Both the position numbers and the translations under genes were made by a program. DNA of 64,000 nucleotides from an uncultured Pseudomonadota bacterium (lineage in GTDB: Bacteria; UBA10199; JADFYH01): contig CAZQOW010000001.1 of the NCBI GenBank assembly GCA_964595045.1, positions 9,183-73,182 on the forward strand, read 5' to 3'. The notes under the pieces were generated by a model. That model was not told the origin of the DNA. It ran no database searches and saw only the letters and a program-made list of their open reading frames with translations. Of the stretch, positions 6,769 through 62,276 are shown piece after piece. Positions within the stretch are counted from its first letter, which is position 1, and each line of letters begins with the position of its first letter.

Positions 6769-8187
6769 TTATAAAATATATCTGCTTAAATCTTGATCTT
6801 TCGCGATATCAGTCAATCTCTCTCTCACATATTTCTGATCAATACAAACCTCTTTTCCCTTCATTTCGGGAGCGCTAAACGAAACATCATCCAAAACTCT
6901 TTCCATGATTGTATGCAAACGTCTTGCTCCAATATTTTCAGTTCTTTCATTCACCGTCGCTGCGAAGGTAGCAATTTCTTCCAATCCATCTTGCCGAAAA
7001 TCGACTTTTACCTCTTCGGTTTTTAACATGGCAACCGACTGTTTCATGAGCGAGTTTTCAGGTTCAATTAAAATTCTCAAAAAATCTCCCTGACTCAAAG
7101 AATCGAGCTCTACTCGAATCGGAAATCTCCCTTGCAATTCAGGAATCAAATCGGACGGCTTTGAAACATGAAAAGCGCCGGCTGCAATAAACAAAATATG
7201 ATCGGTTTTGACCATTCCATATTTCGTATTGACGTTTGAACCTTCAACAATCGGCAAGATATCCCGTTGAACCCCTTCTCTGGAAACATCAGGACCTTGG
7301 GCACTTTCACGGCCGGCGATTTTGTCGATTTCATCTAGAAAGACAATTCCGTTTTGTTCGACCCGCTCTATGGCACATTTAATAACGTAATCCATATCAA
7401 TTAAACGACCCGCTTCTTCTTGAAGTAAAATCTGTTTTGCTTCTAGCACTTTTACTTTTCTTCGCTTTTTTCCTTTGGGCATGAAGCTTTGAAACATATC
7501 GCGAAGATTCATTCCGATCTCATCCATGTTCGCTCCGCTGATTACTTCCACCATCGGCATCGAGGCTTGGGAGTTGATTTCGAGATCAACGATCCTTTCA
7601 TCGAGTTTTCCAGCGCGAAGAAGCGCTCTTAACTTTTCGCGGGTTTCATCGGTCGGTTCTTGTACCGGTTCGATCGGCTCTTCTACAGTGGCCGAAAAGT
7701 CTGCTTTAGAAAATTCGTTATCTTGCAAAACAGTTTCTTGAGATTCAGTCGGTTCAGGAGATTGTCTTCTCGGAAGTAAAAGATCTAAGATCTGTTCTTC
7801 AACCAGCTCTTCGGCTTTTGCGAGAACTTTTTCTTTTTCTTCTTCTCGGACCATGTTCACCGCCAAGTCAGTCAATTCGCGGATAATCGACTCAACATCT
7901 TTTCCGACATAACCCACCTCGGTAAACTTGGACGCTTCGACTTTGACAAACGGCGCCTGTGCAAGCTTTGCCAAGCGACGCGCAATTTCAGTTTTTCCAA
8001 CGCCGGTTGGTCCGATCATAATAATGTTTTTTGGAGCAATTTCATCGCGAAGTTCTTTCGGAACCTGCTGCCTTCTCCATCGATTCCGAAGCGCAATCGC
8101 TACGGCACGTTTAGCTTTTGCTTGTCCGATAATATATTTATCTAACTCAACCACGATTTCTTTGGGGGTAAAATTCATATTAACCAA
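6769..8187 (-). CDS. hslU: ATP-dependent protease ATPase subunit HslU
   Basis: N-terminal [33 protein letters not shown], Walker [16 protein letters not shown], 472 aa with an acidic variable insert (I-domain). Overlaps hslV by 8 nt. Confidence 0.9.
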
Positions 8188-9708: not shown

Positions 9709-10956
9709 TTATTTCAACGTTTTCAATGGTAACTTTTTATTTTCACTTAATTTTCGAAAATGTTCGATTGAAAACGTTAAAAAAATGCTAAAAAATAATC
9801 CGCCTATAAAAGCAATAAGTGTATTTTGTCGCACTTTTGGGAAAGAGGGCCCCCTAGGAACTAGGGCTTTATCAATTACTTGAAAAGCTAGATCTTCTTT
9901 TGATTCTTCTATTTTTGCTAACTCATATTGCTGCATAAGAAGAGCATTTGTATTTGTAAGTAATTCTCTTTGAAGAGTTACATACTGTAAGTAAACTTGA
10001 GCCGGAACATTTTCGACAACTCCTTTTTGATTCAATCTCAATAAATGTGCGTCAGATCTTTCTTTTTGTTGCTCCAAGATGCTAAGGTGCTGGCGGAATT
10101 CTTCAAAAGTTTTAGGAAGGATTTCTGATTTCCCGACATCAACATTTATAGTAGACTGTACGCTTGAGATTCTATTATTAGTATAAAACTCACTTAATTT
10201 TTTACTAAACTCTAAGAAGTCTACTTTATTCTTCTGTAACTGAATCTCTATAAACTGACGGTTCCTTTTAGCTGTGGTCAAATTATTCGTAGTAATATAA
10301 TCTTGTAGTCGAACAACAAAATGATTCGCTATGCTCGCAGTTAATTGTGGATCTTTGAAAGTAACTACGATTTTAAGTAGTCCTGTTTTTTTATCTTCAG
10401 CTACTTTTAAAACTTTTGATTGAATAACGCCTACTCCATCTTCGATGCGTGGGATTTGCTCTGCGTTATTATACTTCCAATTATTTTTTGAAACATCCCA
10501 TTGATTCTCAAAAAGAACCGGCATTAAATGTAGATCTTCTATAACCCCCTCAATAAGGGTACGACTGTTTAAAATATTTTTAAATTGCTGAGTTTGTTGA
10601 TCATTTCCCCCAAGTCCTGCCAATTGACTTCCTATAACTGGAATAGAATTAGCTTGAGTTAGTAATGCAGAAAGTCCTCCTCTCCCTGATGAAATTGGAG
10701 TTAAGGCAACCTCTGCCTGGTATAGCTTGGGTGATTTTGAACTAATCCAAAAAGTTATCAGTGTTAATAACAAGGTAAAACAGGCAATTTTCAGTTTATG
10801 GTTATAAAGCATTCTCCCATAATCTAGGAGATTTATTTCATCATCTTCCGCTTTTTTTTGCCAATCATAATAGAAAGATGGAATTGGGAATGGTGGACTA
10901 GAAAAACCTGAATCATCTCCAGGTATGGTTTTGGAATGTTCAGAATCAATTTGCAT
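9709..10956 (-). CDS. Wzz-like polysaccharide co-polymerase (PCP) without a C-terminal BY-kinase domain
   Basis: Wzz-type N-terminus (EINLLDYGRMLYNHKLKIACFTLLLTLITFWIS, TM1), long coiled-coil periplasmic region, C-terminal TM2 (LIAFIGGLFFSIFLTF). Only 415 aa and no Walker motifs. Confidence 0.65.
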   Translation of the reverse strand: MQIDSEHSKTIPGDDSGFSSPPFPIPSFYYDWQKKAEDDEINLLDYGRMLYNHKLKIACFTLLLTLITFWISSKSPKLYQAEVALTPISSGRGGLSALLTQANSIPVIGSQLAGLGGNDQQTQQFKNILNSRTLIEGVIEDLHLMPVLFENQWDVSKNNWKYNNAEQIPRIEDGVGVIQSKVLKVAEDKKTGLLKIVVTFKDPQLTASIANHFVVRLQDYITTNNLTTAKRNRQFIEIQLQKNKVDFLEFSKKLSEFYTNNRISSVQSTINVDVGKSEILPKTFEEFRQHLSILEQQKERSDAHLLRLNQKGVVENVPAQVYLQYVTLQRELLTNTNALLMQQYELAKIEESKEDLAFQVIDKALVPRGPSFPKVRQNTLIAFIGGLFFSIFLTFSIEHFRKLSENKKLPLKTLK

Positions 10957-11104: not shown

Positions 11105-12223
11105 ATGAAAAAATGTTTTATATTAATTTTAATAATAAGCATGGTAATGTCGCAAACCTATTTCCTCCAAGCTCAAGGTTTCGACCCATCTTCTCTTCTT
11201 AACAATCGAGGTGGGAGTAGAGTTAATGATGTACAAAGAAGCTTTCGTGCATTGCCAAACTCTTCTACTGGAAATAAAGGAGAAGCCACCGACACTTCTT
11301 TTTCTTCTCCATCAAACTCAATAGGGAGAGTTTCTGAAGGATCTATATACTATAACATCCATGTTCTTGGGGAAGTGAATAGACCTGGAACATATAAAGC
11401 CCTACCCTCTGACCGCATCACTGATGGGGTAAGGTACGCTGGTGGAATCTCTGAAAATGGCTCTCAAACAGCGATTCAACTCAGAAGACAAGGTAAGAGA
11501 ACGCAAATACTTGATCTTTTTTCTTATAAATTTAAAGGAATGCTTGATCAAAATCCTTATCTTATTGAAAACGATGTTATTTTCATTCCTCTTAAAGAAG
11601 GAGAGTTTGAAGTAGAAGGACCAGTAAAGCGACCTGGTAAATATGAAATGACCGGCTCTATTAACTTAGAAAATGCTATTAATATGGCAGGTGGATTTGC
11701 AACTGGACGATCTATACAAGCTCCGATTCACATTATTCGTTTCAATGAAAATGAAAAAAAAGAAATTCTTAAAATAGATAATAAAGAAGAATCAATCAAG
11801 AGTTTTGCCATTCAAAAAGGCGATGTAGTAATTGTCCCTCATGTTTTAACTGCTAATAATAAATTTGATTACAACTTAAAGCAACTTCCGGGTGATCATA
11901 TTTTTTACCCAACATTGAATGATCAAATTTACGTTTCTGGCGCCGTATCCTTACCAGGACCTTATCCATTTCAACCTGGTCTTTCGGTGAATAATTATAT
12001 AAGTCAGGCGGGACCAAGCGATAAAGCTAGTTTAAAAAGAGCGAGGATCATTGGATCTGATGGTAAAAGAAGAACTGTAAATGACATTGATCTAGTCAAT
12101 CCCGGAGATACGATTGTAGTTCCTGCTAAAGCAATTACTGTTACTAATGCTATCTCATGGTTTAGTACTTTATCATCACTTGCTCTAACAAGCTTTGTTT
12201 TTTATGATAGATTTGCTAAATAG
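11105..12223 (+). CDS. Wza-like outer-membrane polysaccharide export protein (Poly_export + SLBB domains)
   Basis: Signal peptide, PGTYKALPSDRITDGVRYAGG-type Poly_export motif, repeated SLBB-like segments, 372 aa. Divergent from the Wzz-like gene. Confidence 0.7.
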   Translation: MKKCFILILIISMVMSQTYFLQAQGFDPSSLLNNRGGSRVNDVQRSFRALPNSSTGNKGEATDTSFSSPSNSIGRVSEGSIYYNIHVLGEVNRPGTYKALPSDRITDGVRYAGGISENGSQTAIQLRRQGKRTQILDLFSYKFKGMLDQNPYLIENDVIFIPLKEGEFEVEGPVKRPGKYEMTGSINLENAINMAGGFATGRSIQAPIHIIRFNENEKKEILKIDNKEESIKSFAIQKGDVVIVPHVLTANNKFDYNLKQLPGDHIFYPTLNDQIYVSGAVSLPGPYPFQPGLSVNNYISQAGPSDKASLKRARIIGSDGKRRTVNDIDLVNPGDTIVVPAKAITVTNAISWFSTLSSLALTSFVFYDRFAK

Positions 12224-12376: not shown

Positions 12377-13873
12377 ATGAGACGATTATTTCTTGTAGGT
12401 ATTTTTCTGTTTGATATCCTCTTTTTTTCAGGATGCGTTGGCCCCTCTGATTCAAATAACTCTTACATTTCCAAATTAACAAATCCTAAACTCACCCTCA
12501 CCATCACAGGTATTGGCAAAGGGAAGATCCACTCTTCCCAAGGAGAAATCAATTGCTCAAAAGCAGGAGGTGCCTGTAGCACTATCACTCACAAAGGAGA
12601 GAAGCTCACCCTCACAGCTGAGCCGGAAAACGGGTACCTCTTTTTGGGATGGTATGGGGGCATTTGTCACGGAGGTCTCGATTGTGAAGTGACGATGGAT
12701 CAGGCAAAAGAGATCAAAGCTGCATTTGGAATGGTCGCTTATATATCTAATTTAAATCCTTTTCCCAATTCCATGAAAAACTCCAATCGATCTTTATCGG
12801 ATATCGAAGCGAGTCAGATTTTTAATATTTGGATTGCGACCACTGATGGCAAAACCTCTTATCCTCTCACTCAACTGGGCAGAGCTAATAGCCAATTCCC
12901 TCGCTGGTCTCCTGATGGAACCAAACTCCTTTATCAATCTTCTAGAGCGTTGGATGGAAGCGATCAGGATATCGGCCGATCTAACATCTGGGTTGTAAAC
13001 GCCGACGGCTCCAATCATAAACCGCTTACCAGCCTGACTCAGGCTGACAGCTTTCTTCCCCAATGGTCTCCCGATGGAAAACAGATTGTCTACGGATCCT
13101 TTCAGGCTTTGGATGGAACAGATTATAAAAGCGACTTTTCAAATATTTGGATGATGAACTCCGATGGATCAAATCCCAAACCGCTCACAAAACTGACAAA
13201 GGGGGGAAGCTACGAACCTCAGTGGTCCCCCGATGGAAAACAGATCGTCTATGAATCTGCACGCGCGCTCGATGGAAACGACAGTACCAACGAGCATTAT
13301 AATATCTGGATCATGAATGCAGATGGATCAAGCCCCAAGCCTCTCACTCAGTTGACAAAGGCGGATAGTTACCTCCCCCAATGGTCTCCCGATGGGAGCA
13401 AAATAGCCTATCAATCTTTTCAAGCTCTGGATGGAAAGGATCATAAAAATGATTTTTCCAATATTTGGGTGGTCAATTCAGATGGCTCAAACCCGAAACC
13501 TATCACCCAGCTAACGAAGGCTGGAAGCTACTCAGCGCAATGGTCTTCGGATAGCACTCATCTGCTTTATGAATCTTCTCGCGCCTTGGATGGAACCGAC
13601 AATACGAATGAACATTACAATATTTGGATTGCGGATCTAAACGATCCAAACCACAAACCGCTCACCCATTTCACACAGGCCGACAGCTATGTTCCACAAG
13701 GATCTGCGGACGGAAGTCAATTGATCTACGGATCCTCTGCGACTCTCGATGGAGCAGATCAGAACAATAATCACCTTTCCAACATCTGGGTGATGAATCT
13801 GGATCAACTTGAAACAAAACCGCTGACTCAATCAAATAACGCCCATAGTTTTTTGCAGTTTATTGCGGAGTAA
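12377..13873 (+). CDS. Lipoprotein: N-terminal divergent InlB-B-repeat-like domain, then about 8 PD40 (TolB-like) beta-propeller repeats
   Basis: Lipobox LFDILFFSGC. Cys-containing domain (GEINCSKAGGACSTITHKGEKLTLTAEPENGYLFLGWYGGICHGGLDCEVTM) resembling InlB B-repeat. A roughly 47-aa unit (NIW..N.DGSN.KPLT.LT.A.S..PQWSPDG..I.Y.S..ALDG) repeats eight times. Confidence 0.6.
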   Translation: MRRLFLVGIFLFDILFFSGCVGPSDSNNSYISKLTNPKLTLTITGIGKGKIHSSQGEINCSKAGGACSTITHKGEKLTLTAEPENGYLFLGWYGGICHGGLDCEVTMDQAKEIKAAFGMVAYISNLNPFPNSMKNSNRSLSDIEASQIFNIWIATTDGKTSYPLTQLGRANSQFPRWSPDGTKLLYQSSRALDGSDQDIGRSNIWVVNADGSNHKPLTSLTQADSFLPQWSPDGKQIVYGSFQALDGTDYKSDFSNIWMMNSDGSNPKPLTKLTKGGSYEPQWSPDGKQIVYESARALDGNDSTNEHYNIWIMNADGSSPKPLTQLTKADSYLPQWSPDGSKIAYQSFQALDGKDHKNDFSNIWVVNSDGSNPKPITQLTKAGSYSAQWSSDSTHLLYESSRALDGTDNTNEHYNIWIADLNDPNHKPLTHFTQADSYVPQGSADGSQLIYGSSATLDGADQNNNHLSNIWVMNLDQLETKPLTQSNNAHSFLQFIAE

Positions 13874-14022
13874 AAAAAATTCTATTTTTTAATTGGCTGC
13901 TTTTTGGATTTTATCGAGCAATAAAGTATGAAATTAGGACAATAAAAAAATCCTTCTTCTTCTCTAATCTAGAAAAACACTCTCTTTCTCAATTGGCATA
14001 ACCTCTGCATGACCTGCCGGTC

Positions 14023-14646
14023 ATGAGTGATGTAAAAAATATTTTAACCATTATCGTTCTCTTCTCATTTCTTTTACTGAATGGATCATTTGCTCGTACA
14101 GCGGAAAAACCAACTCTGCATCAATTAGAAGTCGCTGCGCTCAAATATGCAAGTCTAGATCCGCAGGAGGTAATAAATTGGAAATCGAGAATCAAGTGGG
14201 CAAAAGCCTTGCCGCAAGTAACCGTCGGTTATGAACAACGGCTCGTCAATCAAATCAACAATACGATTCAAGATTCTATTTCAGTCACCAGCTCAAGCAT
14301 TACGGTCGGCCCTCCTCAATCTCAACTCAATCAAAACAACAATCTCAATCAAGGCTTTGAAGCAAAAGCAACTTGGTCTTTGGATGAACTGGTCTTTAAT
14401 AAAGATTCTCTCTTAATCTCTAAAGAGGCTCGCTACCGCAACCTCATGCGCTCGCAGGTTTTAGAGGAGCTTTACCAGATTTATTTTGAAAGAAAAAAAC
14501 TGCTCTTGAAAGAAGGAGAAAAAAAACGGGAAGAACTTTCATCTATCACTCAGCTCCGTCTTGAGGAGTTGGAGGCAAAACTCGATTCTCTCACCGGAGG
14601 ATATTTTTCCAAAACCACAGAACCCATTCAAGGAGATGAAAAATGA
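14023..14646 (+). CDS. Secreted hypothetical protein (signal peptide, coiled-coil C-terminus). Weak resemblance to the N-terminal helical repeat of outer-membrane efflux proteins.
   Basis: Signal peptide ILTIIVLFSFLLLNGSFA. PTLHQLEVAALKYASLDPQEV resembles a TolC-family first repeat, but the protein is only 207 aa. Overlaps the next gene by 4 nt. Confidence 0.3.
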   Translation: MSDVKNILTIIVLFSFLLLNGSFARTAEKPTLHQLEVAALKYASLDPQEVINWKSRIKWAKALPQVTVGYEQRLVNQINNTIQDSISVTSSSITVGPPQSQLNQNNNLNQGFEAKATWSLDELVFNKDSLLISKEARYRNLMRSQVLEELYQIYFERKKLLLKEGEKKREELSSITQLRLEELEAKLDSLTGGYFSKTTEPIQGDEK

Positions 14647-15716
14647 AAATAAATAGCAGATTACTTTATTATTTTTTGTTCACCTTTCTTTCTCTCATCA
14701 TCGGTTGCCAAAATTTGCCGAACGGAAACTTTCATTCTCTCGTTCAATCTGAGCCTTATCTGCTTGCCATCTCTCCTGCTCCTGGAGATCGATTGGAGAA
14801 GATCGATCAAATCGAGTTGACCTTTTCTCATCCGATTGAAACAAAAACAGTCAACGCAAAATCAATTTTTCTTCTAAAAACAGAAATCAATCCGACTCAA
14901 TATTCAACCGGTGATCTCATTCAAAAAGATTTGGATAAAGGAAAACTAAATCGGGTCGATGGAACTTATACAACTAATTCAAATTTGCAAAAAATTACCT
15001 GGTCATCCTCTGAAATTTTAAAGAGCGGAAGTTATACTTTGGTAATTACTTCTGATTTGTTGGCAATAAGTAAAGCCCCCTTTAACCAAAAACCAGGGGA
15101 TCAAACCATTCCATTTCTTGCCGTTTTCAAATTGCCAATTCCATTACAACCAACTCCAACACCACAACCGAATTCGGATCCACCTCCTCCGGAGAAAATA
15201 AGACCAACCTCACTAGTAATGAATGAAATTCTTTACGACTCAGCAGAAAGTGATACCGATGGAAATGAGTTTGTCGAACTTTACGGAACACCCAATAGCG
15301 ATATTGATGGGTATCAACTGGTCATCGTCAACGGATCGGATGGAAAAATTCTAAAAATCATCACCTTTCCGGAAAACAGCAAAATCCCTGCAGATGGCAT
15401 TTTCCTCATCGCCGACGCCCAAAATGGAAAGCCTTCCCAATCGAATATTCCTGGAGCCGATTTTATCGACAACTTCGACCCTCAAAATGGCCCAGATGCA
15501 ATTCAGCTTTTGGATGATCAGGGAAATTTACTGGATGCTGTTTCTTATGGTGAAGTCAGCGTCACTCTAGCGAGCAATGGGCTCGCAATTTTGCAGGGAA
15601 AACCTGCATTCGATGTGAAAGAAGGACATAGCCTATCGCGGATCAAAGGACAGAATACAAAGGATAACAGCAAAGACTTTATCGATCTCGAAAAACCAAC
15701 CCCAGGAGAATTATAA
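14643..15716 (+). CDS. Lipoprotein with a C-terminal lamin-tail domain (LTD)
   Basis: Lipobox LSLIIGC. C-terminal LVMNEILYDSAESDTDGNEFVELYGTPNSDIDGYQLVIVNGSDGKI...IFLIADA...DAIQLLDDQGNLLDAVSYG matches the LTD pattern (NE.lyd......EFVEL.N......L.GY.L). Confidence 0.55.
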   Translation: MKINSRLLYYFLFTFLSLIIGCQNLPNGNFHSLVQSEPYLLAISPAPGDRLEKIDQIELTFSHPIETKTVNAKSIFLLKTEINPTQYSTGDLIQKDLDKGKLNRVDGTYTTNSNLQKITWSSSEILKSGSYTLVITSDLLAISKAPFNQKPGDQTIPFLAVFKLPIPLQPTPTPQPNSDPPPPEKIRPTSLVMNEILYDSAESDTDGNEFVELYGTPNSDIDGYQLVIVNGSDGKILKIITFPENSKIPADGIFLIADAQNGKPSQSNIPGADFIDNFDPQNGPDAIQLLDDQGNLLDAVSYGEVSVTLASNGLAILQGKPAFDVKEGHSLSRIKGQNTKDNSKDFIDLEKPTPGEL

Positions 15717-16754
15717 ATGTCATTTACAACAAAGAAGTTAATTCTTTTTTTTGCCTTCCTTTTTTCGGGCTGCGCTGCACTCAAACAGAACCCTTTTCCA
15801 AAGGATTGGCAACAGACTCCCACTCCTCCTGAATTAAATTCTTCAAATGAAAACAGTGGGAGTCTTAAAATTACTCTTCTCGATATTGGTCAAGGGGACG
15901 CCACATTGATCACTACCCCCAAAGGAAAAAATATTCTGATCGATGCGGGAAATATTGGAAAGGGAACCGATATCATCCTCCCCTACCTTCAATCCCATCG
16001 AATCAACTCTCTTGATATGATCATTGCCACTCATTATGATGCGGACCATATCGGTGGAATAAGCGAAGTGATTGCAGGAGCGGATGGCCAGTTGGAAACA
16101 GCCGATGATTTAATGCCGTCACAAGGGATTTACGATCGGGGTGGAACTCCGCTCGATTCTTCTCCCCTTTACACAGACTATTTAAAGGCGGTTGAAAAAA
16201 ATAGATTTTCTATTTTACCGGGAGACCTGATCGGTCTTGATCCGGAAGTCATCATTCGTTGTGTGGCAGTCAATGGATCAGTTTGGAATGGCCCAACGCT
16301 CGATCTCTTTCAGGTCGGCATTCATGAAACCGAAAATAGTGCCGCAATCTCTCTGCTGATCGAATATAAGAACTTTCGTTATCTTACTTCGGCTGATCTA
16401 ACGGGCGGAGGAAGTCCTGGAGGATTTAAAACATTGGATATAGAAACTCCCTTGGCAGAACAGATTGGAGAAATTACCGCTATCCATGTCAATCATCATG
16501 GAAGTAGTACAAGTTCCAATCAAAGCTTTGTCAACAGTCTAAAACCCAAAGTTGCCCTGATTAGTGTAGGAAATGGAAATAGTTATCATCACCCTGACCA
16601 GCAAATTCTCGAACGTTGGCAAAAATCGGGAGCAAAAATTTGGCTGACTGAAAAAGGGGCGGGAGGATTTGTCACCAAGGAAAAAATTGCCAATGGTGCA
16701 GTTGAACTGATTACAGATGGAAATTTAATTATAATTAATGGGGAAAAAATTTAA
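15717..16754 (+). CDS. Lipoprotein, metallo-beta-lactamase fold hydrolase of the ComEC/Rec2 C-terminal-domain type
   Basis: Lipobox LFSGC. LKITLLDIGQGDATLITTP.GKNILIDAGN and IATHYDADHIGG match the ComEC-type MBL motifs. Directly abuts the LTD gene. Confidence 0.6.
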   Translation: MSFTTKKLILFFAFLFSGCAALKQNPFPKDWQQTPTPPELNSSNENSGSLKITLLDIGQGDATLITTPKGKNILIDAGNIGKGTDIILPYLQSHRINSLDMIIATHYDADHIGGISEVIAGADGQLETADDLMPSQGIYDRGGTPLDSSPLYTDYLKAVEKNRFSILPGDLIGLDPEVIIRCVAVNGSVWNGPTLDLFQVGIHETENSAAISLLIEYKNFRYLTSADLTGGGSPGGFKTLDIETPLAEQIGEITAIHVNHHGSSTSSNQSFVNSLKPKVALISVGNGNSYHHPDQQILERWQKSGAKIWLTEKGAGGFVTKEKIANGAVELITDGNLIIINGEKI

Positions 16755-17065: not shown

Positions 17066-17077
17066 GGCGGTAGCCTG
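17066..17077 (+). promoter_or_regulatory. ops-like element GGCGGTAGCCTG (11/12 match to the E. coli RfaH recruitment site GGCGGTAGCGTG), 40 nt upstream of the NusG-paralog start codon
   Basis: Direct reading of 17061-17080 (tcaatGGCGGTAGCCTGctt). Candidate -35/-10 (TTGCGC ... TATAAC) about 45-65 nt further upstream would place the element in the 5' UTR. Confidence 0.5.
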
Positions 17078-17117: not shown

Positions 17118-17597
17118 ATGAATGCTTGGTACGTCATTCGAACGAAACTAAAAAAAGAAAAAGAAGTTATAAACCAGCTCAACAGAGCTCATTATGAACT
17201 CTTCTTTCCCCAAATGAATGCAGTTCCATCTCCTAAACCTCTTTTTCCTTGCTATCTCTTCATCCGAACAGATTTTACCGATCCAAATCATCACCGAATG
17301 GTCCGATACACTCGCGGAGTAAACAGAATTTTGGGAACTGGAACAGATCCTGCCCCTGTTTCGGATATCGTCATTGAAACTTTAAAAATGAAAACGGAAA
17401 ACGGTTTACTGCGGGAACAAGAACTTCTTTTTAAAGAAGGGGACGAGGTAAAGGTGAAAAAGGGAATCTTAAAAGATCTGCAGGGAATGATAGAAAAAAA
17501 TCTTCCGGCTGCAGGTCGGGTAAAAGTATTGTTTAAATGGTTGAACGTAAATATGCGAGCAACCTTGAAATACACTGATTTAGAAAGACATGGTTAA
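17118..17597 (+). CDS. NusG/RfaH-family specialised transcription antiterminator (NGN + KOW domains)
   Basis: NGN start WYVIRTKLKKEKEVINQL, KOW-like FKEGDEVKVKKGILKDLQGMIEK, 159 aa. First gene of a co-directional gene run of about 42 kb, preceded by a 360-nt leader. Confidence 0.7.
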   Translation: MNAWYVIRTKLKKEKEVINQLNRAHYELFFPQMNAVPSPKPLFPCYLFIRTDFTDPNHHRMVRYTRGVNRILGTGTDPAPVSDIVIETLKMKTENGLLREQELLFKEGDEVKVKKGILKDLQGMIEKNLPAAGRVKVLFKWLNVNMRATLKYTDLERHG

Positions 17598-17642: not shown

Positions 17643-19310
17643 TTGAGCTTATTTTACAATTCGTTCGCTTACACTCAAGCATCCATCAATATATCGACCT
17701 TAGATCCTGTTTATCGAGACATTGATCGGCTAACTTCCCAAGGGTTGGTGGACAAAATCATTGTGGGGCAACGTCCCTATTCACGAAAAGAAATTGCAAG
17801 AATTGTTTCTGAAGCGATAAAACATCTCCCGAACCTAGAAGAGAAACTCAATAACCCCAAACTTTCTGAAACAGAAAAGCAGGCGATTCAAGCCAGAATA
17901 GACTATTTAAAACCGACTCTTAACCGTTTAAAACAGGACTTTCATGAGGAGTTAGTTTTCTTAAAAACCGTAGAAGGGGAAAACAATTGGTACTCTCTTC
18001 ATCCACTAGAAAAAGTAACCGTCGATCTGACAGGATCCAATAGTAAATCAAGACAGGTGATTCCGAACAATGGTGCTGGAAGCATCAATGCCACCATCAA
18101 TCCGCTTCTTCAATATCAACAAGGAAGAGAATTAATTGAAGGAGTGAACCCTTCTCTCGAAACCACTCATTGGGCGAGACTCACAAACCATTTTGCTCTT
18201 TATCTGCAACCCCGTTTTCAACTAGCTTTTGCAACCGGCAACAATGAATCAAATGATAATAATATTTTCCTTCTCTATCTTTACGGCAAAGTTTATTTTA
18301 AAAATTTTGAATTAGAAGTAGGTCGAGACAATCTAGTTTGGGGACAGGGAAAAGATGCGGGACTCGTCTTATCCAATAACCCCCGCGGTCTCGACATGAT
18401 AAAGATTTCCAATGATAGCCCTTTTTTTCTCCCTTCCATCTTAAAATATCTCGGGGCGATCAAAATGTCTTATTTCTTTTCTAATTTGGGTCCTGAGCAA
18501 AATTATCCCTATCCTTATCTTTTAGGATATAAGTTTAGCATTCAACCATTTTCGTTCTTCGAACTCGGGTATGAAATGTTAGTGGAGTCAGGAGGAAGAG
18601 GTGCACCTTACAACTCTTTTAAAAATAGCTTATTAGAAGGAATCCCTTTCGGTGCTTTATATAATGGAGCCAATTCCGATATTGCTTCCAATAAAATGGG
18701 AGGACTCGATTTTCGATTTCGAATTCCGCCTGCTCGAAATTTGGAGATTTACGGTGAGTTTATATTAGATGACAGCCCTACTATTAATCGAACAAAAGAT
18801 TTTTTTCTTTTAGACTCAGGATTTATGGGTGGAATTTATTTAGGACGATTGGTGAATACTGGAAAAGCAGATTTGAGATTAGAATATCATCATACAGGAC
18901 CCATCTTTTATCGAAACTCCCAATACACAACTGGTTTAACTTTAAATGGATTTATCTTAGGAGATAACTTAGGTCCTGATGCACAGGGGTTTTATTTAAA
19001 CTCCAACGTAGATATTAATTCACAAAATCAACTGACATTTAATGAAGCTGTGGAACTCAGAAGCGGTGATATTTGGGCTGGTGCTGTGAGCCCTCAATTT
19101 GTAGTGATTCAAAATAATCCAAGTGAAAATCGCTATCGCACAACAGTCGAATGGTTATACCGCATGAATAAAAATCCATTTCTTATAAAAACAAAGGTTG
19201 GATACGAATTTGTTCAAAATTTCAATTTTGTAAGCAGTCAAAGTCGAAATAATTTTTTAGGAGAAATTTCCTTTCAATTCAACATTGACCATTTAATCCA
19301 CTTACAATAA
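17643..19310 (+). CDS. Wzi-like capsule-anchoring outer-membrane beta-barrel protein
   Basis: N-terminal LDPVYRDIDRLTSQGLVDKIIVGQRPYSRKEIARIV matches the Wzi D..L.DRG.I...PLS..EIAR.L motif. About 555 aa, aromatic-rich with alternating beta-strand pattern. TTG start, N-terminus uncertain. Confidence 0.55.
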   Translation: MSLFYNSFAYTQASINISTLDPVYRDIDRLTSQGLVDKIIVGQRPYSRKEIARIVSEAIKHLPNLEEKLNNPKLSETEKQAIQARIDYLKPTLNRLKQDFHEELVFLKTVEGENNWYSLHPLEKVTVDLTGSNSKSRQVIPNNGAGSINATINPLLQYQQGRELIEGVNPSLETTHWARLTNHFALYLQPRFQLAFATGNNESNDNNIFLLYLYGKVYFKNFELEVGRDNLVWGQGKDAGLVLSNNPRGLDMIKISNDSPFFLPSILKYLGAIKMSYFFSNLGPEQNYPYPYLLGYKFSIQPFSFFELGYEMLVESGGRGAPYNSFKNSLLEGIPFGALYNGANSDIASNKMGGLDFRFRIPPARNLEIYGEFILDDSPTINRTKDFFLLDSGFMGGIYLGRLVNTGKADLRLEYHHTGPIFYRNSQYTTGLTLNGFILGDNLGPDAQGFYLNSNVDINSQNQLTFNEAVELRSGDIWAGAVSPQFVVIQNNPSENRYRTTVEWLYRMNKNPFLIKTKVGYEFVQNFNFVSSQSRNNFLGEISFQFNIDHLIHLQ

Positions 19311-29002: not shown

Positions 29003-29478
29003 CAAAACTTACTTTAAGACTCGCCTCAGGCGATGATGCAAAACTCTTGTGGGAATGGGCGAATGATCCAGAGACGCGCAAATTCTCCTTTTCGAGCGCG
29101 CCAATTGCTTGGCAAACTCATCAAACATGGCTCGCATCGAAATTGAGCAACCCATCTTATTTTTTTCGAATCGCTCTTGATGCCTCTGAAGTACCGATCG
29201 GATATATTCGTTGTGAAAAAAAAGAAAATAGAGGTCTAATTTCAGTCAGTGTCAGCCCACTCATGCGGAGAGAAGGATATGGCAGCAGAATCATTCAATT
29301 GGCAACTCAAGTGATCTTTAAAGAAATGAATGTCGAAATGATTCATGCTTATATTAAAAAAGAGAACCAAGCTTCTCAAAAGACTTTCGAAAAAGCCGGC
29401 TTCCAATACGAAGGGATTGTCGTTCTGGAACAGCATCAAGCTCTTCAATTTACATATCAAAGGAATCAGACCTTATGA
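28999..29478 (+). CDS. pseH: GNAT N-acetyltransferase (PseH-like)
   Basis: 159 aa GNAT fold (RREGYGSRII..., KENQASQKTFEKAGF). Sits between an aminotransferase and pseI. Confidence 0.55.
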   Translation: MTKLTLRLASGDDAKLLWEWANDPETRKFSFSSAPIAWQTHQTWLASKLSNPSYFFRIALDASEVPIGYIRCEKKENRGLISVSVSPLMRREGYGSRIIQLATQVIFKEMNVEMIHAYIKKENQASQKTFEKAGFQYEGIVVLEQHQALQFTYQRNQTL

Positions 29479-30524
29479 ATGAAATCACTATTGGTAAAAA
29501 AAAGATTGGGCCTGCTCATCCGGTCTATATCATTGCAGAAATCTCGGCAAATCATCATCAAAATTTCGATCAGGCGGTAGAGTTAATCAAAGCCTCTAAA
29601 GAAGCGGGGGTCGATGCTGTCAAATTACAAACCTATACCGCCGAAACGATCACACTCGATTCAAATAAAAAGCATTTTCAGATTAAAGGGAAAACCCTTT
29701 GGGATGGGCAGCGACTTTATGATCTATATAAAGATGCATATACTCCCTGGGAATGGCAACCGCGTTTAAAAGTAATTGCAGAACAGATCGGTCTCGATCT
29801 TTTTTCTTCTGCTTTCGATTCAACCGCGGTCGATTTTTTAGAAGGAATGAATATTCCGGCGCACAAGATAAGCTCATTTGAGATTGTTGATCTTCCACTC
29901 ATTGAAAAAATGGCAAAAACCAAAAAACCGCTTATCATTTCAACAGGAATGGCAACTTTAGAAGAAATTTCTGAAGCAGTGAGCACCGCTCGTTCTGCCG
30001 GGGCTGATCAAATCGCTCTTCTCAAATGTACCAGCGCGTATCCCGCTCCACCCGACTCGATGAGGCTCCGAACAATTCCGCATTTGTCAGAAACCTTTCA
30101 AATTCCAATAGGCCTTTCCGACCATACGCTGGGAGTCATTGTTCCAGTCGCCGCAGTCGCGATGGGGGCGTGTATTATTGAAAAACATATCACTTTATCC
30201 ACAAATATTTCGGGTCCTGACAGTGCCTTCTCACTCGAACCGGATGAATTCAAACAAATGGTGGAAAGTGTGCGAATAACCGAACAAGCTTTGGGAAAAG
30301 TTCATTATGGAAGAAGTGAACAAGAGGAAAAAAACCATCTTTTTCGGCGATCACTCTTTATCGTGAAAGATGTGAAGTTGGGTGAAACTCTTACAGAAGA
30401 GAATATTCGCTCTATTCGACCGGGGCATGGCCTTTCTCCAAAGCATTTTAAAGAAATCATCGGACGAAAGGCGACTCAAGATATTCCCGCCGGAACCCCT
30501 CTCGACTGGAGCCTTGTTCAATGA
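29475..30524 (+). CDS. pseI: Pseudaminic acid synthase (NeuB family with C-terminal SAF domain)
   Basis: YIIAEISANHHQNFDQAVELIKASKEAGVDAVKLQTY, the PseI-type N-terminal signature. SAF domain present (LFIVKDVKLGETLTEENIRSIRPG), 349 aa. Followed by a PseG-like gene. Confidence 0.8.
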   Translation: MNEITIGKKKIGPAHPVYIIAEISANHHQNFDQAVELIKASKEAGVDAVKLQTYTAETITLDSNKKHFQIKGKTLWDGQRLYDLYKDAYTPWEWQPRLKVIAEQIGLDLFSSAFDSTAVDFLEGMNIPAHKISSFEIVDLPLIEKMAKTKKPLIISTGMATLEEISEAVSTARSAGADQIALLKCTSAYPAPPDSMRLRTIPHLSETFQIPIGLSDHTLGVIVPVAAVAMGACIIEKHITLSTNISGPDSAFSLEPDEFKQMVESVRITEQALGKVHYGRSEQEEKNHLFRRSLFIVKDVKLGETLTEENIRSIRPGHGLSPKHFKEIIGRKATQDIPAGTPLDWSLVQ

Positions 30525-59453: not shown

Positions 59454-62276
59454 CTACAAATTACAATACCTAGGTAGAGGGGTAATTCCAACAAGGGCTT
59501 GATCTGCGCAGTTCTTATTAGTGATTGACTGCTCTGAAAGATCCGCTGAATAAATAATAGTTTCATCAATTAAACCTTCAAAAAAACCATTAAACGCGGC
59601 TCCTTTGTCACAGTAAGCACCAATACAAACATCCACGGAATTGTTAGATATTACACCACTCTGTGGTGTTGATGACTCCATGACTTTATCAACATATAAT
59701 TTTTGCAGCTTTCCATCATACACGCCAACAATATGATGCCACTTTCCATCATTTATCAATGTATTGGATTCTGACTCAGCTACCACCAATGTTTTAGTCG
59801 AAAAACCAACTACAAGACCAGGGCCATTAACTCTAACTCTCATCCAATAGGAAGAATCAACCATTCCAAGCTTTGATAAAATAGATTTATTTGTTGAAAT
59901 TGCAGTAGTCTTCACCCAAGCTTCAATAGTTAATTTATTCATACCATCGAGGGTGGAACTATCTGGCATTAGCGAATAACCGCTTATTCCATCAAATTGG
60001 AACAACCTTCCTAAAATGCCAGTCATAGGTGGTAACCAAGAGATTCCTCCATGCAACATTCCATGATTTCCATTACCCGAGTAGTCGCAAACCCCATTTC
60101 CTGGCATTCCTCCAGGTGCAGTGGGCTTACCTAAACCAGCTGGACAAAGAATATTTGGGTCCGAATCGAATCTCCACCACCCAACAATACTATCATCTGT
60201 ATTAAACCTACTGGGTTCAGTGCAAATTGAAACAGCTCCCTGAGCATCTTTCGAACAAATTCTCCACGCATACGATTTATTTGGTTGCAAATAAAGAGCT
60301 GTAGTCCCCATATTCGGAGCGAATGCAGCGTTACCATCGGTGGAGTTTTGGATAACGAATTTCGAATCTTTCACATCACTTCTATAAAGTGCAGCTTGAG
60401 GAAATACTTTTGGGTCACTCGAAACCTCCGAGAAGTAAACTTCGTAAGCTATTTTATCCCCATCAGGATCGTTCGCAGGATTCCAATGTAGATATAGTCT
60501 TGTCGGAGCCCATGTTACCCCATTTGCAGGTGACGCGGCTAATTCAGGGGTGAGTGGACTGTTATTTTTAGCCGAAGAAAGAAACTTATAGGCTTGAACT
60601 GTTTCGACTCCATTCGCAGTCCCTGCCCAAGTAACAACGAAATTCGAAAAATCGCTGGCAAGCTCTGCAAGACGACTGTTTTGAGCCGTCGTCGAAATGC
60701 TCACAGGTCCTTTGAGCACATTCAACATTCCATCCAAAAGAACCGCTGAGAAATTATTTTGATTAATAAACGAAAGAGCAATGGTGTCTGAAGCACCGGC
60801 AGCCGAATTTCCGGAAATTCCAAAACCACTTGATAAACGTGGTTCGACTTTTCCTTCATTTCCTCCCAATGCTAAATTTACTGAGGCTAATTCTATCAAA
60901 TCAAGACCAATCGATTTCAAAGAGATATTATGCTGGTCATCGTAGGCAAGAACCACATGATCAAGATAAGAAATAATATCAGGATTTTCCAGAAAACCTC
61001 CGTCTCCACCTTTCACAACATATTCAGTAAAGGTGGGATTTTTAACTAGTCCATCATTTGATGTATTCAACGAAATTCTCTGTGCCCCAATATCTCCGCG
61101 ACTTGGAGATGCAGCTCTGGCAAATTCATAGGCGATCACAAAATCACTTGAACCGGTCCCTTTATTCATACTGTTATATGCAATGCGTGGTTTTTGAGCT
61201 CTAAAAACGTTGGGGAGAGCAAAGCAAGCACCGGTATCAGACGCTTTGAGTGCCGCTGTAGGATCACTATAAACTGGAAATGACGATTTGTTTAACGCGC
61301 GATTGGTTGGAGAAAACTCCGGTTGAATATAGCGGGCATATACAGAAGTAGAATCTCGTCGAGCGGGATCATCACAACCGATAAAACCTTTATTGGTTTG
61401 CCACGTCACCAAAAAACCATTGGAACTCGAAGGAGCAACATCTGGCTTACCAGACTGTTCCCATGCCTGAATTTCACTATCATTCGTAGCAGGATGAGCT
61501 GGATTGTTTGAAACAATCCAGATACCTGAAATCAAAATCCCCTCTTCCCAAACAAAATCAGTTCCTGTCCCACCACTCCCTTTATCATCTGGATGAGCTG
61601 CCGGGGTTAAATCATTGGCGTTTAACATCTTTACGATGATATTGCTGAATTTTCTTCCTTCAGAATTACTAGATCCATCTGAGTTTTTTGCAAAATCTGC
61701 AATTCCTTTTAATTCCCAAACCACTAAAAAACGCCCTTTTCCATCCGAACCTTTATTGTAAGCAACAGCAGGATTGGAAGCGTTAGGACAATTTTTTGGA
61801 GTCGTAATTGCCGAATTATCTGAATCGAAAGTTTCATAAAAGCAACCGCGCTTGGTACGTGGTGTGCTAATAAGCACGGGATAGTTAAGAGAATTACCCG
61901 CTTTATCTCTAAATTGACCTAGAATATTAGAAGATCCATCATCATTTTTCTTTTCCCACACAACCAAATATCTTTGATTGTCGGGATCATAAGCAATATC
62001 AGGATGAGTCGACTGAACTTTCACATTTTCAAGATTTGATGTTTTCGAATTGATAACAAACGGACTTCTTCGCACTCCTATGGCAGAACCGCTCTCCGAA
62101 AGGGAATTGGTTTGACGATTAAAAAATTTTGATGGATAAAGTGCCGAATTTATTTTTCTAAAAAAATCATTCAGAGAAAAATAAAGATTAGGTTGAGCCT
62201 GGCTAGTGTTCGATATTATCACCAAAAGAACTAAGAGGCTGAACCCCTTCACAAAAAAAGTTTTAAAAAACCTCAT
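59454..62276 (-). CDS. Large secreted protein with FN3-like segment and C-terminal LamG (concanavalin-A-like lectin) domain
   Basis: Signal peptide FSLLVLLVIISNTSQAQ. FN3-like GVTWAPTRLYLHWNPANDPDGDKIAYEVYFS. C-terminal LamG-like ...LTIEAWVKTT...DGKWHHIVGVYDG.KLQKLYVDKV. 940 aa. Confidence 0.6.
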   Translation of the reverse strand: MRFFKTFFVKGFSLLVLLVIISNTSQAQPNLYFSLNDFFRKINSALYPSKFFNRQTNSLSESGSAIGVRRSPFVINSKTSNLENVKVQSTHPDIAYDPDNQRYLVVWEKKNDDGSSNILGQFRDKAGNSLNYPVLISTPRTKRGCFYETFDSDNSAITTPKNCPNASNPAVAYNKGSDGKGRFLVVWELKGIADFAKNSDGSSNSEGRKFSNIIVKMLNANDLTPAAHPDDKGSGGTGTDFVWEEGILISGIWIVSNNPAHPATNDSEIQAWEQSGKPDVAPSSSNGFLVTWQTNKGFIGCDDPARRDSTSVYARYIQPEFSPTNRALNKSSFPVYSDPTAALKASDTGACFALPNVFRAQKPRIAYNSMNKGTGSSDFVIAYEFARAASPSRGDIGAQRISLNTSNDGLVKNPTFTEYVVKGGDGGFLENPDIISYLDHVVLAYDDQHNISLKSIGLDLIELASVNLALGGNEGKVEPRLSSGFGISGNSAAGASDTIALSFINQNNFSAVLLDGMLNVLKGPVSISTTAQNSRLAELASDFSNFVVTWAGTANGVETVQAYKFLSSAKNNSPLTPELAASPANGVTWAPTRLYLHWNPANDPDGDKIAYEVYFSEVSSDPKVFPQAALYRSDVKDSKFVIQNSTDGNAAFAPNMGTTALYLQPNKSYAWRICSKDAQGAVSICTEPSRFNTDDSIVGWWRFDSDPNILCPAGLGKPTAPGGMPGNGVCDYSGNGNHGMLHGGISWLPPMTGILGRLFQFDGISGYSLMPDSSTLDGMNKLTIEAWVKTTAISTNKSILSKLGMVDSSYWMRVRVNGPGLVVGFSTKTLVVAESESNTLINDGKWHHIVGVYDGKLQKLYVDKVMESSTPQSGVISNNSVDVCIGAYCDKGAAFNGFFEGLIDETIIYSADLSEQSITNKNCADQALVGITPLPRYCNL

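Follow-up and report, generated by a model that had tools for sequence, protein, structure and literature searches.

A conserved trio of exported proteins, including a ComEC-type metallo-beta-lactamase lipoprotein, as a putative envelope DNA-processing module of an uncultivated bacterial lineage

We analysed a group of exported-protein genes on a 64,000-nucleotide stretch of DNA (hereafter the window) from an uncultured Pseudomonadota bacterium (GTDB lineage Bacteria; UBA10199; JADFYH01; GenBank assembly GCA_964595045.1, contig CAZQOW010000001.1, positions 9,183 to 73,182). Three adjacent genes encode a secreted protein without a Pfam family, here called U, a lipoprotein with a lamin tail domain (LTD) and a lipoprotein with a metallo-beta-lactamase (MBL) fold, and this trio, with U-LTD as its core, is a conserved unit found in about 50 uncultivated species. 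From sequence comparison we propose, with moderate confidence, that the trio is an envelope-anchored DNA-processing nuclease module rather than a system for trimming capsule sugars. The module is conserved in an uncultivated lineage whose metagenome-assembled genomes (MAGs) are labelled UBA10199 or 'Deltaproteobacteria bacterium'. Comparative genomics and fused archaeal proteins had already revealed the association of LTD and MBL domains; new here are its separation onto two coupled lipoproteins, its conservation across the lineage and the third partner U, a member of a large unnamed family in which fusions to ComEA domains and propellers occur.

The conserved unit of U, LTD and MBL genes

An initial annotation had described four co-directional genes for exported proteins as one cluster, the fourth being a gene for a PD40 beta-propeller lipoprotein that precedes U. 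All four open reading frames (ORFs) are present on the + strand with their export signals and domains (Table 1). Lipoboxes can be read from the sequence in ORF1 (FFSGC), ORF3 (IIGC) and ORF4 (LFSGC), while the U protein (ORF2) has an ordinary cleavable signal of the signal-peptidase-I type instead of a lipobox. The translational coupling described for the last three genes was also found: the stop codon of U and the ATG of the LTD gene overlap by 4 nt (GAAAAATGAAAA), with an AAGGAGA Shine-Dalgarno-like site 7 nt upstream, and the TAA of the LTD gene directly abuts the ATG of the MBL gene, with GGAGA upstream.

A homologue search with the LTD protein returned more than 200 proteins with the same Big_5+LTD architecture, all of them metagenomic. 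The set of related loci consists of 56 LTD-anchored loci, mostly one per species, 54 of which come from a scan of one-genome-per-species contigs; the MAGs of these 54 are labelled Deltaproteobacteria, UBA10199, Myxococcota, Bdellovibrio-like or plain 'bacterium'. ORFs were called in all loci, the window proteins were searched against them and all genes were clustered. U lies beside the LTD gene in 47 of the 56 loci by phmmer (38 by blastp clustering), and a member of the MBL family was found near it in 34 (32-34 across counts); gene clustering recovered the LTD family in 52 loci. Of the 38 loci that have 1.5 kb or more of flank on both sides, 33 have an adjacent U gene and 24 an adjacent MBL gene. 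No further gene family recurs in more than 10 of the related loci in the all-gene clustering and, since U, LTD and MBL are the sole recurring families, the unit is the trio with U-LTD as its core. The pairing of LTD and MBL, on which the initial annotation had centred, is therefore present in related loci and non-coincidental, but the most constant pair is U with LTD.

Two gene orders were observed. The genes are collinear (U>LTD>MBL>) in the clade of the window, L002 and L004-L010, and divergent (MBL< U>LTD>) in the remaining related loci, and the trio is kept despite this rearrangement. Of 47 related loci, 25 allow the 4-nt overlap of U and LTD.

It is very improbable that the genes lie together by coincidence, or that unrelated secreted proteins have merely accumulated at the margin of a capsule locus. 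The association of U, LTD and MBL extends over dozens of species and both gene orders, the start and stop codons are coupled, and proteins exist in which MBL and LTD are fused. For the trio coincidence is ruled out; it stands only for the PD40 gene, which resembles a passenger. Among the 56 related loci this gene was found only in L005, the closest relative (89% identity), and, being absent from all the others, it looks to have been inserted recently between wza and the trio. The four-gene cluster of the initial annotation thus holds for U, LTD and MBL, far beyond chance, and not for PD40, whose candidacy as a fourth subunit of the module is ruled out by its conservation.

Catalytic residues of the MBL lipoprotein

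The product of ORF4 matches Lactamase_B (PF00753; 43.2 bits, cut-off 22.7) and, over about 270 residues, the ComEC C-terminal domains in the PDB (9ic4, E 6e-27; 30bt, E 8e-25). Its motifs are D76, H106-Y-D108-A-D110-H111, N207, D227, H260-H261-G-S263 and H292-P, and among 35 orthologues H106, D110, H111, D227, H260, H261, S263, H292-P293 and the lipobox C19 are conserved in at least 90%. In an alignment to ComEC of Moorella glycerini, H106/D108/D110/H111/D227/H260-261/S263 correspond to H598/D600/D602/H603/D700/H725/S728. In that domain H598, D600, D602, H603 and D700 coordinate Mn2+, H725 and S728 contact the substrate, and mutation of these residues abolishes or lowers the nuclease activity (PMC12455585). 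Judged by this alignment, the MBL protein carries the complete ComEC-type catalytic set and most likely cleaves DNA phosphodiester bonds via two bound divalent metal ions. Its metal motif is HYDADH, that is, the HxDxDH form of ComEC; the initial annotation had looked for HxHxDH, which is literally absent and would wrongly fail a protein whose ligand set is complete.

The protein shares with the C-terminal domain of ComEC/Rec2 (Moorella glycerini, M. thermoacetica; 9ic4, 30bt) the fold and the HxDxDH, Asp, His and Ser residues together with the C-terminal GHP-type His, but it differs in being a stand-alone 345-aa lipoprotein with two subfamily insertions and with its partners on separate genes. 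Searches of Pfam and NCBIfam found neither the competence/channel domain PF03772 nor an OB fold in it, and the only hydrophobic segment is the lipoprotein signal. Because the channel domain and the OB fold are absent, the MBL protein is not a ComEC, and identification as ComEC/Rec2 was rejected; the match to ComEC_Rec2 (TIGR00361) is likewise partial, at 103 bits under a cut-off of 190. Homologues of the MBL protein include the MBL+LTD fusions P0376 (E 1e-43) and P0421 as well as a true ComEC, P0396, and the fusion P0376 shares the YDRG and DLTGGG...LDxET motifs that are specific to the MBL subfamily.

Remote relatives (30-37% identity) of the MBL protein were also observed. One, at L141 (6001-10946), is immediately followed by genes for an OLD-like TOPRIM ATPase and a UvrD helicase, which together form a Gabija-like pair, and another, at L142 (6001-7492), overlaps an Excalibur-domain gene. 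These OLD-TOPRIM/UvrD and Excalibur contexts are DNA-related, yet the remote relatives belong to a different, non-exported branch. The remote relatives partly match defence MBL effectors. An anti-phage MBL effector (Avs1a, LmuA-type, 6A-MBL) was considered and rejected, as only partial N-terminal matches below the cut-offs were obtained with NCBIfam and PADLOC, and a defence-system reading was likewise rejected, given that the trio proteins are exported and that defence partner genes were not found among the neighbours.

The LTD lipoprotein, the U family and a proposed mechanism

ORF3 matches the LTD family (PF00932; 41.6 bits, cut-off 34.3) over residues 189-303 and Big_5 at 24.6 bits (cut-off 23.6). 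The lipobox Cys (C22) is invariant in 23 of 23 orthologues; the Big_5 domain is variable, and the LTD is strongly conserved, its NFDPQNGPD motif and numerous Asp, Asn and Gly residues being invariant. Some orthologues of 550-607 aa (L008 9758-11758; L011 9989-11650; P0003, P0004, P0006, P0007) contain two LTD stretches, an apparent internal duplication. None of the LTD relatives of 450-607 aa that were examined carries a fused hydrolase domain, and most of them have two LTD stretches.

In other organisms the LTD is joined to a hydrolase in one protein. The haloarchaeal ComA and Hlac_1867 are MBL+LTD lipoproteins (PMC5118699). The likeness of this ComA type (Halobacterium NRC-1 ComA, Hlac_1867), and of the bacterial fusions P0376 and P0421, to the trio lies in the lipobox, the ComEC-type MBL (COG2333) and an LTD on a surface-anchored protein. 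The window departs from it in three respects: MBL and LTD are on two separate, translationally coupled adjacent lipoproteins and not on one polypeptide, a Big_5 domain is added to the LTD protein, and there is a third conserved partner, U. More distant parallels are the extracellular nuclease ExeM, with LTD, OB fold and EEP domain (PMC6085458), and the lipoprotein Hvo_1477, with LTD and thermonuclease, which is required for growth on extracellular DNA (eDNA) (PMC3929857). ExeM/Xds and Hvo_1477 resemble the trio in combining an LTD with an exported phosphodiester hydrolase, and have experimental ties to eDNA degradation, growth on DNA and biofilm; however, their nuclease fold is EEP or SNase rather than MBL, they are single polypeptides and their LTD is only distantly related. 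An Izemoplasma protein also joins LTD and nuclease domains (PMC8289736).

For U, no match was found in Pfam, NCBIfam or the PDB, and Pfam was negative for 31 family members even at E<=10. A profile search over 1.8 billion cluster representatives nevertheless returned 2766 relatives at E<=1e-3, 1750 of them at E<=1e-10. Among the best 150, 98 are stand-alone proteins and 27 have an N-terminal extension longer than 300 aa; most of the extensions that were sampled are BNR/Sortilin/YCF48-type beta-propellers. At least 8 U-domain representatives bear at their N-terminus a ComEA-type HHH_3 domain, that is, a helix-hairpin-helix (HhH) domain. At L059 (6296-8993) a U-domain protein (536 aa, or with a 536-aa N-terminal extension) stands in tandem with the ComEA-HhH-U protein P0200.

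A metagenome scan with a narrower U alignment recovered mainly propeller-U proteins. The neighbourhoods of these proteins contain ECF sigma, zf-HC2 anti-sigma, CHAT-TPR, response regulator, HTH-cupin and pta-ackA genes, and a DNA link was not found among them. Such proteins, of about 500-560 aa, repeatedly follow a set of ECF-type sigma, zf-HC2 anti-sigma-like and CHAT-TPR genes (L060, L062, L081, L084, L100, L116, L117, L122, L133; near position 8001), which suggests that the propeller-U branch has a separate conserved cassette with sigma, anti-sigma and CHAT-TPR genes.

An AF2 model of U, built on an alignment of 108 sequences (pLDDT 85, pTM 0.68), predicts two short helices, a beta-hairpin (65-75/107-117) and a long helical hairpin (127-164, a 38-residue helix, and 174-191). 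Both strands of the beta-hairpin show alternating hydrophobic and polar columns, and W118 is invariant. About 30 residues at the hairpin tip are modelled with low confidence yet conserved, and may need an oligomer or a partner in order to fold. This loop (residues 76-106; window 14098-14340) is rich in Ser, Thr, Asn and Gln and has the lineage-conserved sequence QINNTIQDSISVTSSGVTxGPP.

The initial annotation had called ORF2 TolC-N-terminus-like. The predicted fold lends this weak support. An hhalign comparison with a single OEP sequence was not significant (P 0.02-0.04), though it placed U in register with both OEP repeats, its residues 27-71 falling at the start of each. An OEP profile match was not obtained, and 'TolC-repeat-like' is best taken as a lead and not as membership. 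Compared with the TolC/OEP family (VceC, 1yc9; PF02321), the 183 mature residues of U correspond to roughly a single repeat, the helices reach only about half the length and the 30-residue conserved loop is present at the hairpin tip; U is without a Pfam OEP match.

The analysis establishes the gene order, coupling and conservation of the trio, its catalytic residues, the fusions and the predicted fold. These features suggest how the trio might work, and from them we infer its substrate, localisation, complex formation and physiological role. The MBL lipoprotein would be the cutting subunit, a stand-alone ComEC C-terminal nuclease domain. The DNA affinity of the lone ComEC nuclease domain is undetectable and an attached DNA-binding domain stimulates its activity (PMC12455585), so that a partner is expected for the MBL protein as well. 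Here the partners would be supplied as separate polypeptides, in fixed proportion through translational coupling. The Big_5-LTD lipoprotein would replace the LTD that is elsewhere fused to the MBL subfamily or to other surface nucleases, and probably tethers or positions the enzyme or the substrate at the membrane surface. U, with a fold likened to one TolC-family repeat, probably oligomerises into an outer-membrane-associated scaffold or channel; relatives of U in other lineages bear a ComEA-type DNA-binding domain. Such a module would capture and degrade extracellular or periplasmic DNA, possibly for nutrient (phosphorus) scavenging, for matrix remodelling or as the first step of DNA uptake. 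Because MBL+LTD and ComEA-type HhH-U fusions exist and LTDs occur on surface nucleases, a DNA-processing module is the most economical reading.

If it is correct, a whole uncultivated lineage has a dedicated envelope machine for extracellular DNA, built from a free-standing competence nuclease domain. The bacterial lamin tail domain would gain its first defined, separately encoded partner, so that the role of the LTD could be tested by co-expression and pull-down, and the large unannotated U-domain family would gain a functional foothold. The label 'competence protein ComEC', which 320-350-aa lipoproteins of this kind are likely to receive automatically, would be corrected, and the trio would be set apart from capsule machinery as such.

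The same components could instead form a gate for DNA import, in which U makes up the channel in the outer membrane, DNA is caught at the surface by the LTD lipoprotein and, in the periplasm, the ComEC-type nuclease degrades one strand or trims the ends. The product would supply transformation or nucleotide salvage without a secretin and a pilus. The hydrophobic/polar alternation of the U hairpin with its one invariant Trp, the ComEA-type HhH domains N-terminal to the U domain and a ComEC-type nuclease, which in competence serves for strand degradation (PMC12455585), would all fit such a gate. However, genes for an inner-membrane channel, a ComEC competence domain, a pilus or DprA were not found near the module in the related loci, and the propeller-U relatives adjoin sigma, anti-sigma and CHAT genes rather than DNA-uptake genes; we consider a gate of this kind distinctly unlikely. 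Its general form, that the U domain defines a large unnamed outer-membrane family of single-repeat TolC-like proteins which assembles with LTD and MBL lipoproteins into a secretin- and pilus-free gate for DNA capture, processing and uptake, with HhH-U and propeller-U as variants, is speculative and no less doubtful.

The polysaccharide neighbourhood and the choice of substrate

As the initial annotation described, the genes are flanked by wza upstream and by an antiterminator downstream (Table 1), and a possible functional link to the capsule exporter had been drawn from this position. The link is weakened by comparison: adjacency to wzz/wza is limited to one small clade (L002, L004-L008, L010), and in the divergent group the neighbours are housekeeping genes, namely rimP-nusA-infB-rbfA-DHH, ubiA/ubiE/flavoprotein or Ham1 genes. 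On two long contigs the U-LTD-MBL trio is divergent from wzz and wza, an initiating sugar transferase comes after the trio, and the PD40 gene is absent from both. The capsule neighbourhood and the PD40 gene are local features.

Several observations weigh against a DNA-processing module. In structure, the ComEC nuclease domain comes closest to the phosphorylcholine esterase Pce (PMC12455585), so the fold alone leaves the substrate unfixed, and PDB entry 1wra (Pce/CbpE) is a weak sequence match of the MBL protein. The MBL subfamily has insertions absent from ComEC, around Y-D140-R-G142 and G230-G-G...D241-x-E243. Both lipoproteins are unlike electrostatic DNA binders: the MBL protein is acidic, with a median pI of 4.6 across the family, and the LTD domain strongly so (pI 4.05-4.26 across the family), its acidic, Asp/Asn/Gly-rich motifs being closer to calcium-dependent binding modules. 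The LTD is largely dispensable for ExeM activity in vivo (PMC6085458), the window's own U is without an HhH domain, the MBL gene is not nearby in 14 of the 38 well-flanked loci, and in the clade of the window the trio sits within a polysaccharide locus, between wzz/wza and the initiating transferase.

Pce, the insertions, the acidic LTD motifs and the polysaccharide locus can also be read in favour of another enzyme. The MBL lipoprotein would then be a phosphodiesterase that resembles Pce and has an envelope or capsule polymer or a lipid head group as its substrate, where it strips phosphocholine or a different phosphoester substituent or cuts phosphodiester-linked repeats, while the LTD/Big_5 lipoprotein binds glycan or the surface and U is the outer-membrane partner of an export route. 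We regard this main rival as unlikely, given that most species hold the module in housekeeping contexts (rimP-nusA-infB, ubiA/ubiE, Ham1) without polysaccharide genes, that ComEA-type DNA-binding domains occur in fusion with the U domain, that the cited characterised LTD-bearing hydrolases are nucleases and that the catalytic residues are the ComEC nuclease set. Between nucleic-acid and polysaccharide processing, both of which the initial annotation had entertained, the HhH-U and MBL-LTD fusions favour the former, and glycan trimming is weakened by the confinement of the capsule-exporter neighbourhood to one small clade.

Table 1. Features of the trio and its surroundings (positions within the window)
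Feature	Position	Strand	Description
Wzz-like chain-length determinant	9709-10956	-	upstream context of trio
SLBB/Wza-like exporter	11105-12223	+	upstream context of trio
PD40 gene (ORF1)	12377-13873	+	498 aa; beta-propeller lipoprotein with N-terminal Flg_new_2 (InlB-B-repeat-like) domain; neighbour, not module member
Gene U (ORF2)	14023-14646	+	207 aa, secreted, signal-peptidase-I-type signal, without Pfam family
U/LTD coupling junction	14630-14646	+	Shine-Dalgarno-like AAGGAGA, then ATGA stop/start overlap
LTD gene (ORF3)	14643-15716	+	357 aa lipoprotein: N-terminal Big_5 Ig-like domain, Pro-rich linker, C-terminal lamin tail domain
LTD/MBL coupling junction	15704-15719	+	GGAGA, then TAA stop abutting ATG
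MBL gene (ORF4)	15717-16754	+	345 aa lipoprotein, stand-alone ComEC-C-terminal-type metallo-beta-lactamase fold; predicted metal-dependent nuclease or phosphodiesterase
ops-like GGCGGTAG	17066-17073	+	in 363-bp gap, about 50 bp before RfaH/UpxY-like gene
RfaH/UpxY-like antiterminator	17118-17597	+	downstream context
Wzi	17643-19310	+	downstream context

The PD40 protein has repeats that score 92 bits and are very regular (about 48 aa; NIW[VI]MN.DGSNPKPLT...PQWSPDG), and a Flg_new_2 domain, a divergent InlB B-repeat (E 1e-5). Its repeats and a partial similarity to the TolB propeller liken it to the TolB/PD40 proteins; however, it scores 125 bits against the TolB equivalog TIGR02800 (cut-off 343), the TolB N-domain is replaced by the lipobox and the InlB-B-repeat-like Flg_new_2 domain, and the PD40/TolB-like gene is not conserved together with the trio. 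No sequence similarity was found between the PD40 protein and the propellers fused to U elsewhere.

Downstream of the trio, the RfaH/UpxY-like gene and Wzi are followed by about 40 kb of + strand sugar-nucleotide and glycosyltransferase genes. The 363-bp gap with its ops-like GGCGGTAG ahead of the RfaH-like gene indicates that the long polysaccharide operon appears to begin downstream of the trio. The ops core occurs in two exact + strand copies, where 0.18 would be expected by chance; the second (29573-29580) lies inside an ORF at 29475-30524. A scan for consensus promoters and terminators gave match counts not above those in shuffled sequence, and an Rfam search of the window gave zero matches.

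Farther upstream the window carries xerC, hslVU and arg genes. Its first 2000 nt (1-2000) have a GC content of 0.28, compared with the usual 0.35-0.42, and a sole ORF of at least 120 aa (1102-1557), which is without a Pfam match. At the far end of the polysaccharide locus, the - strand (59454-62276) encodes a protein of 940 aa that has a Laminin_G_3 (concanavalin-like) domain at its C-terminus.

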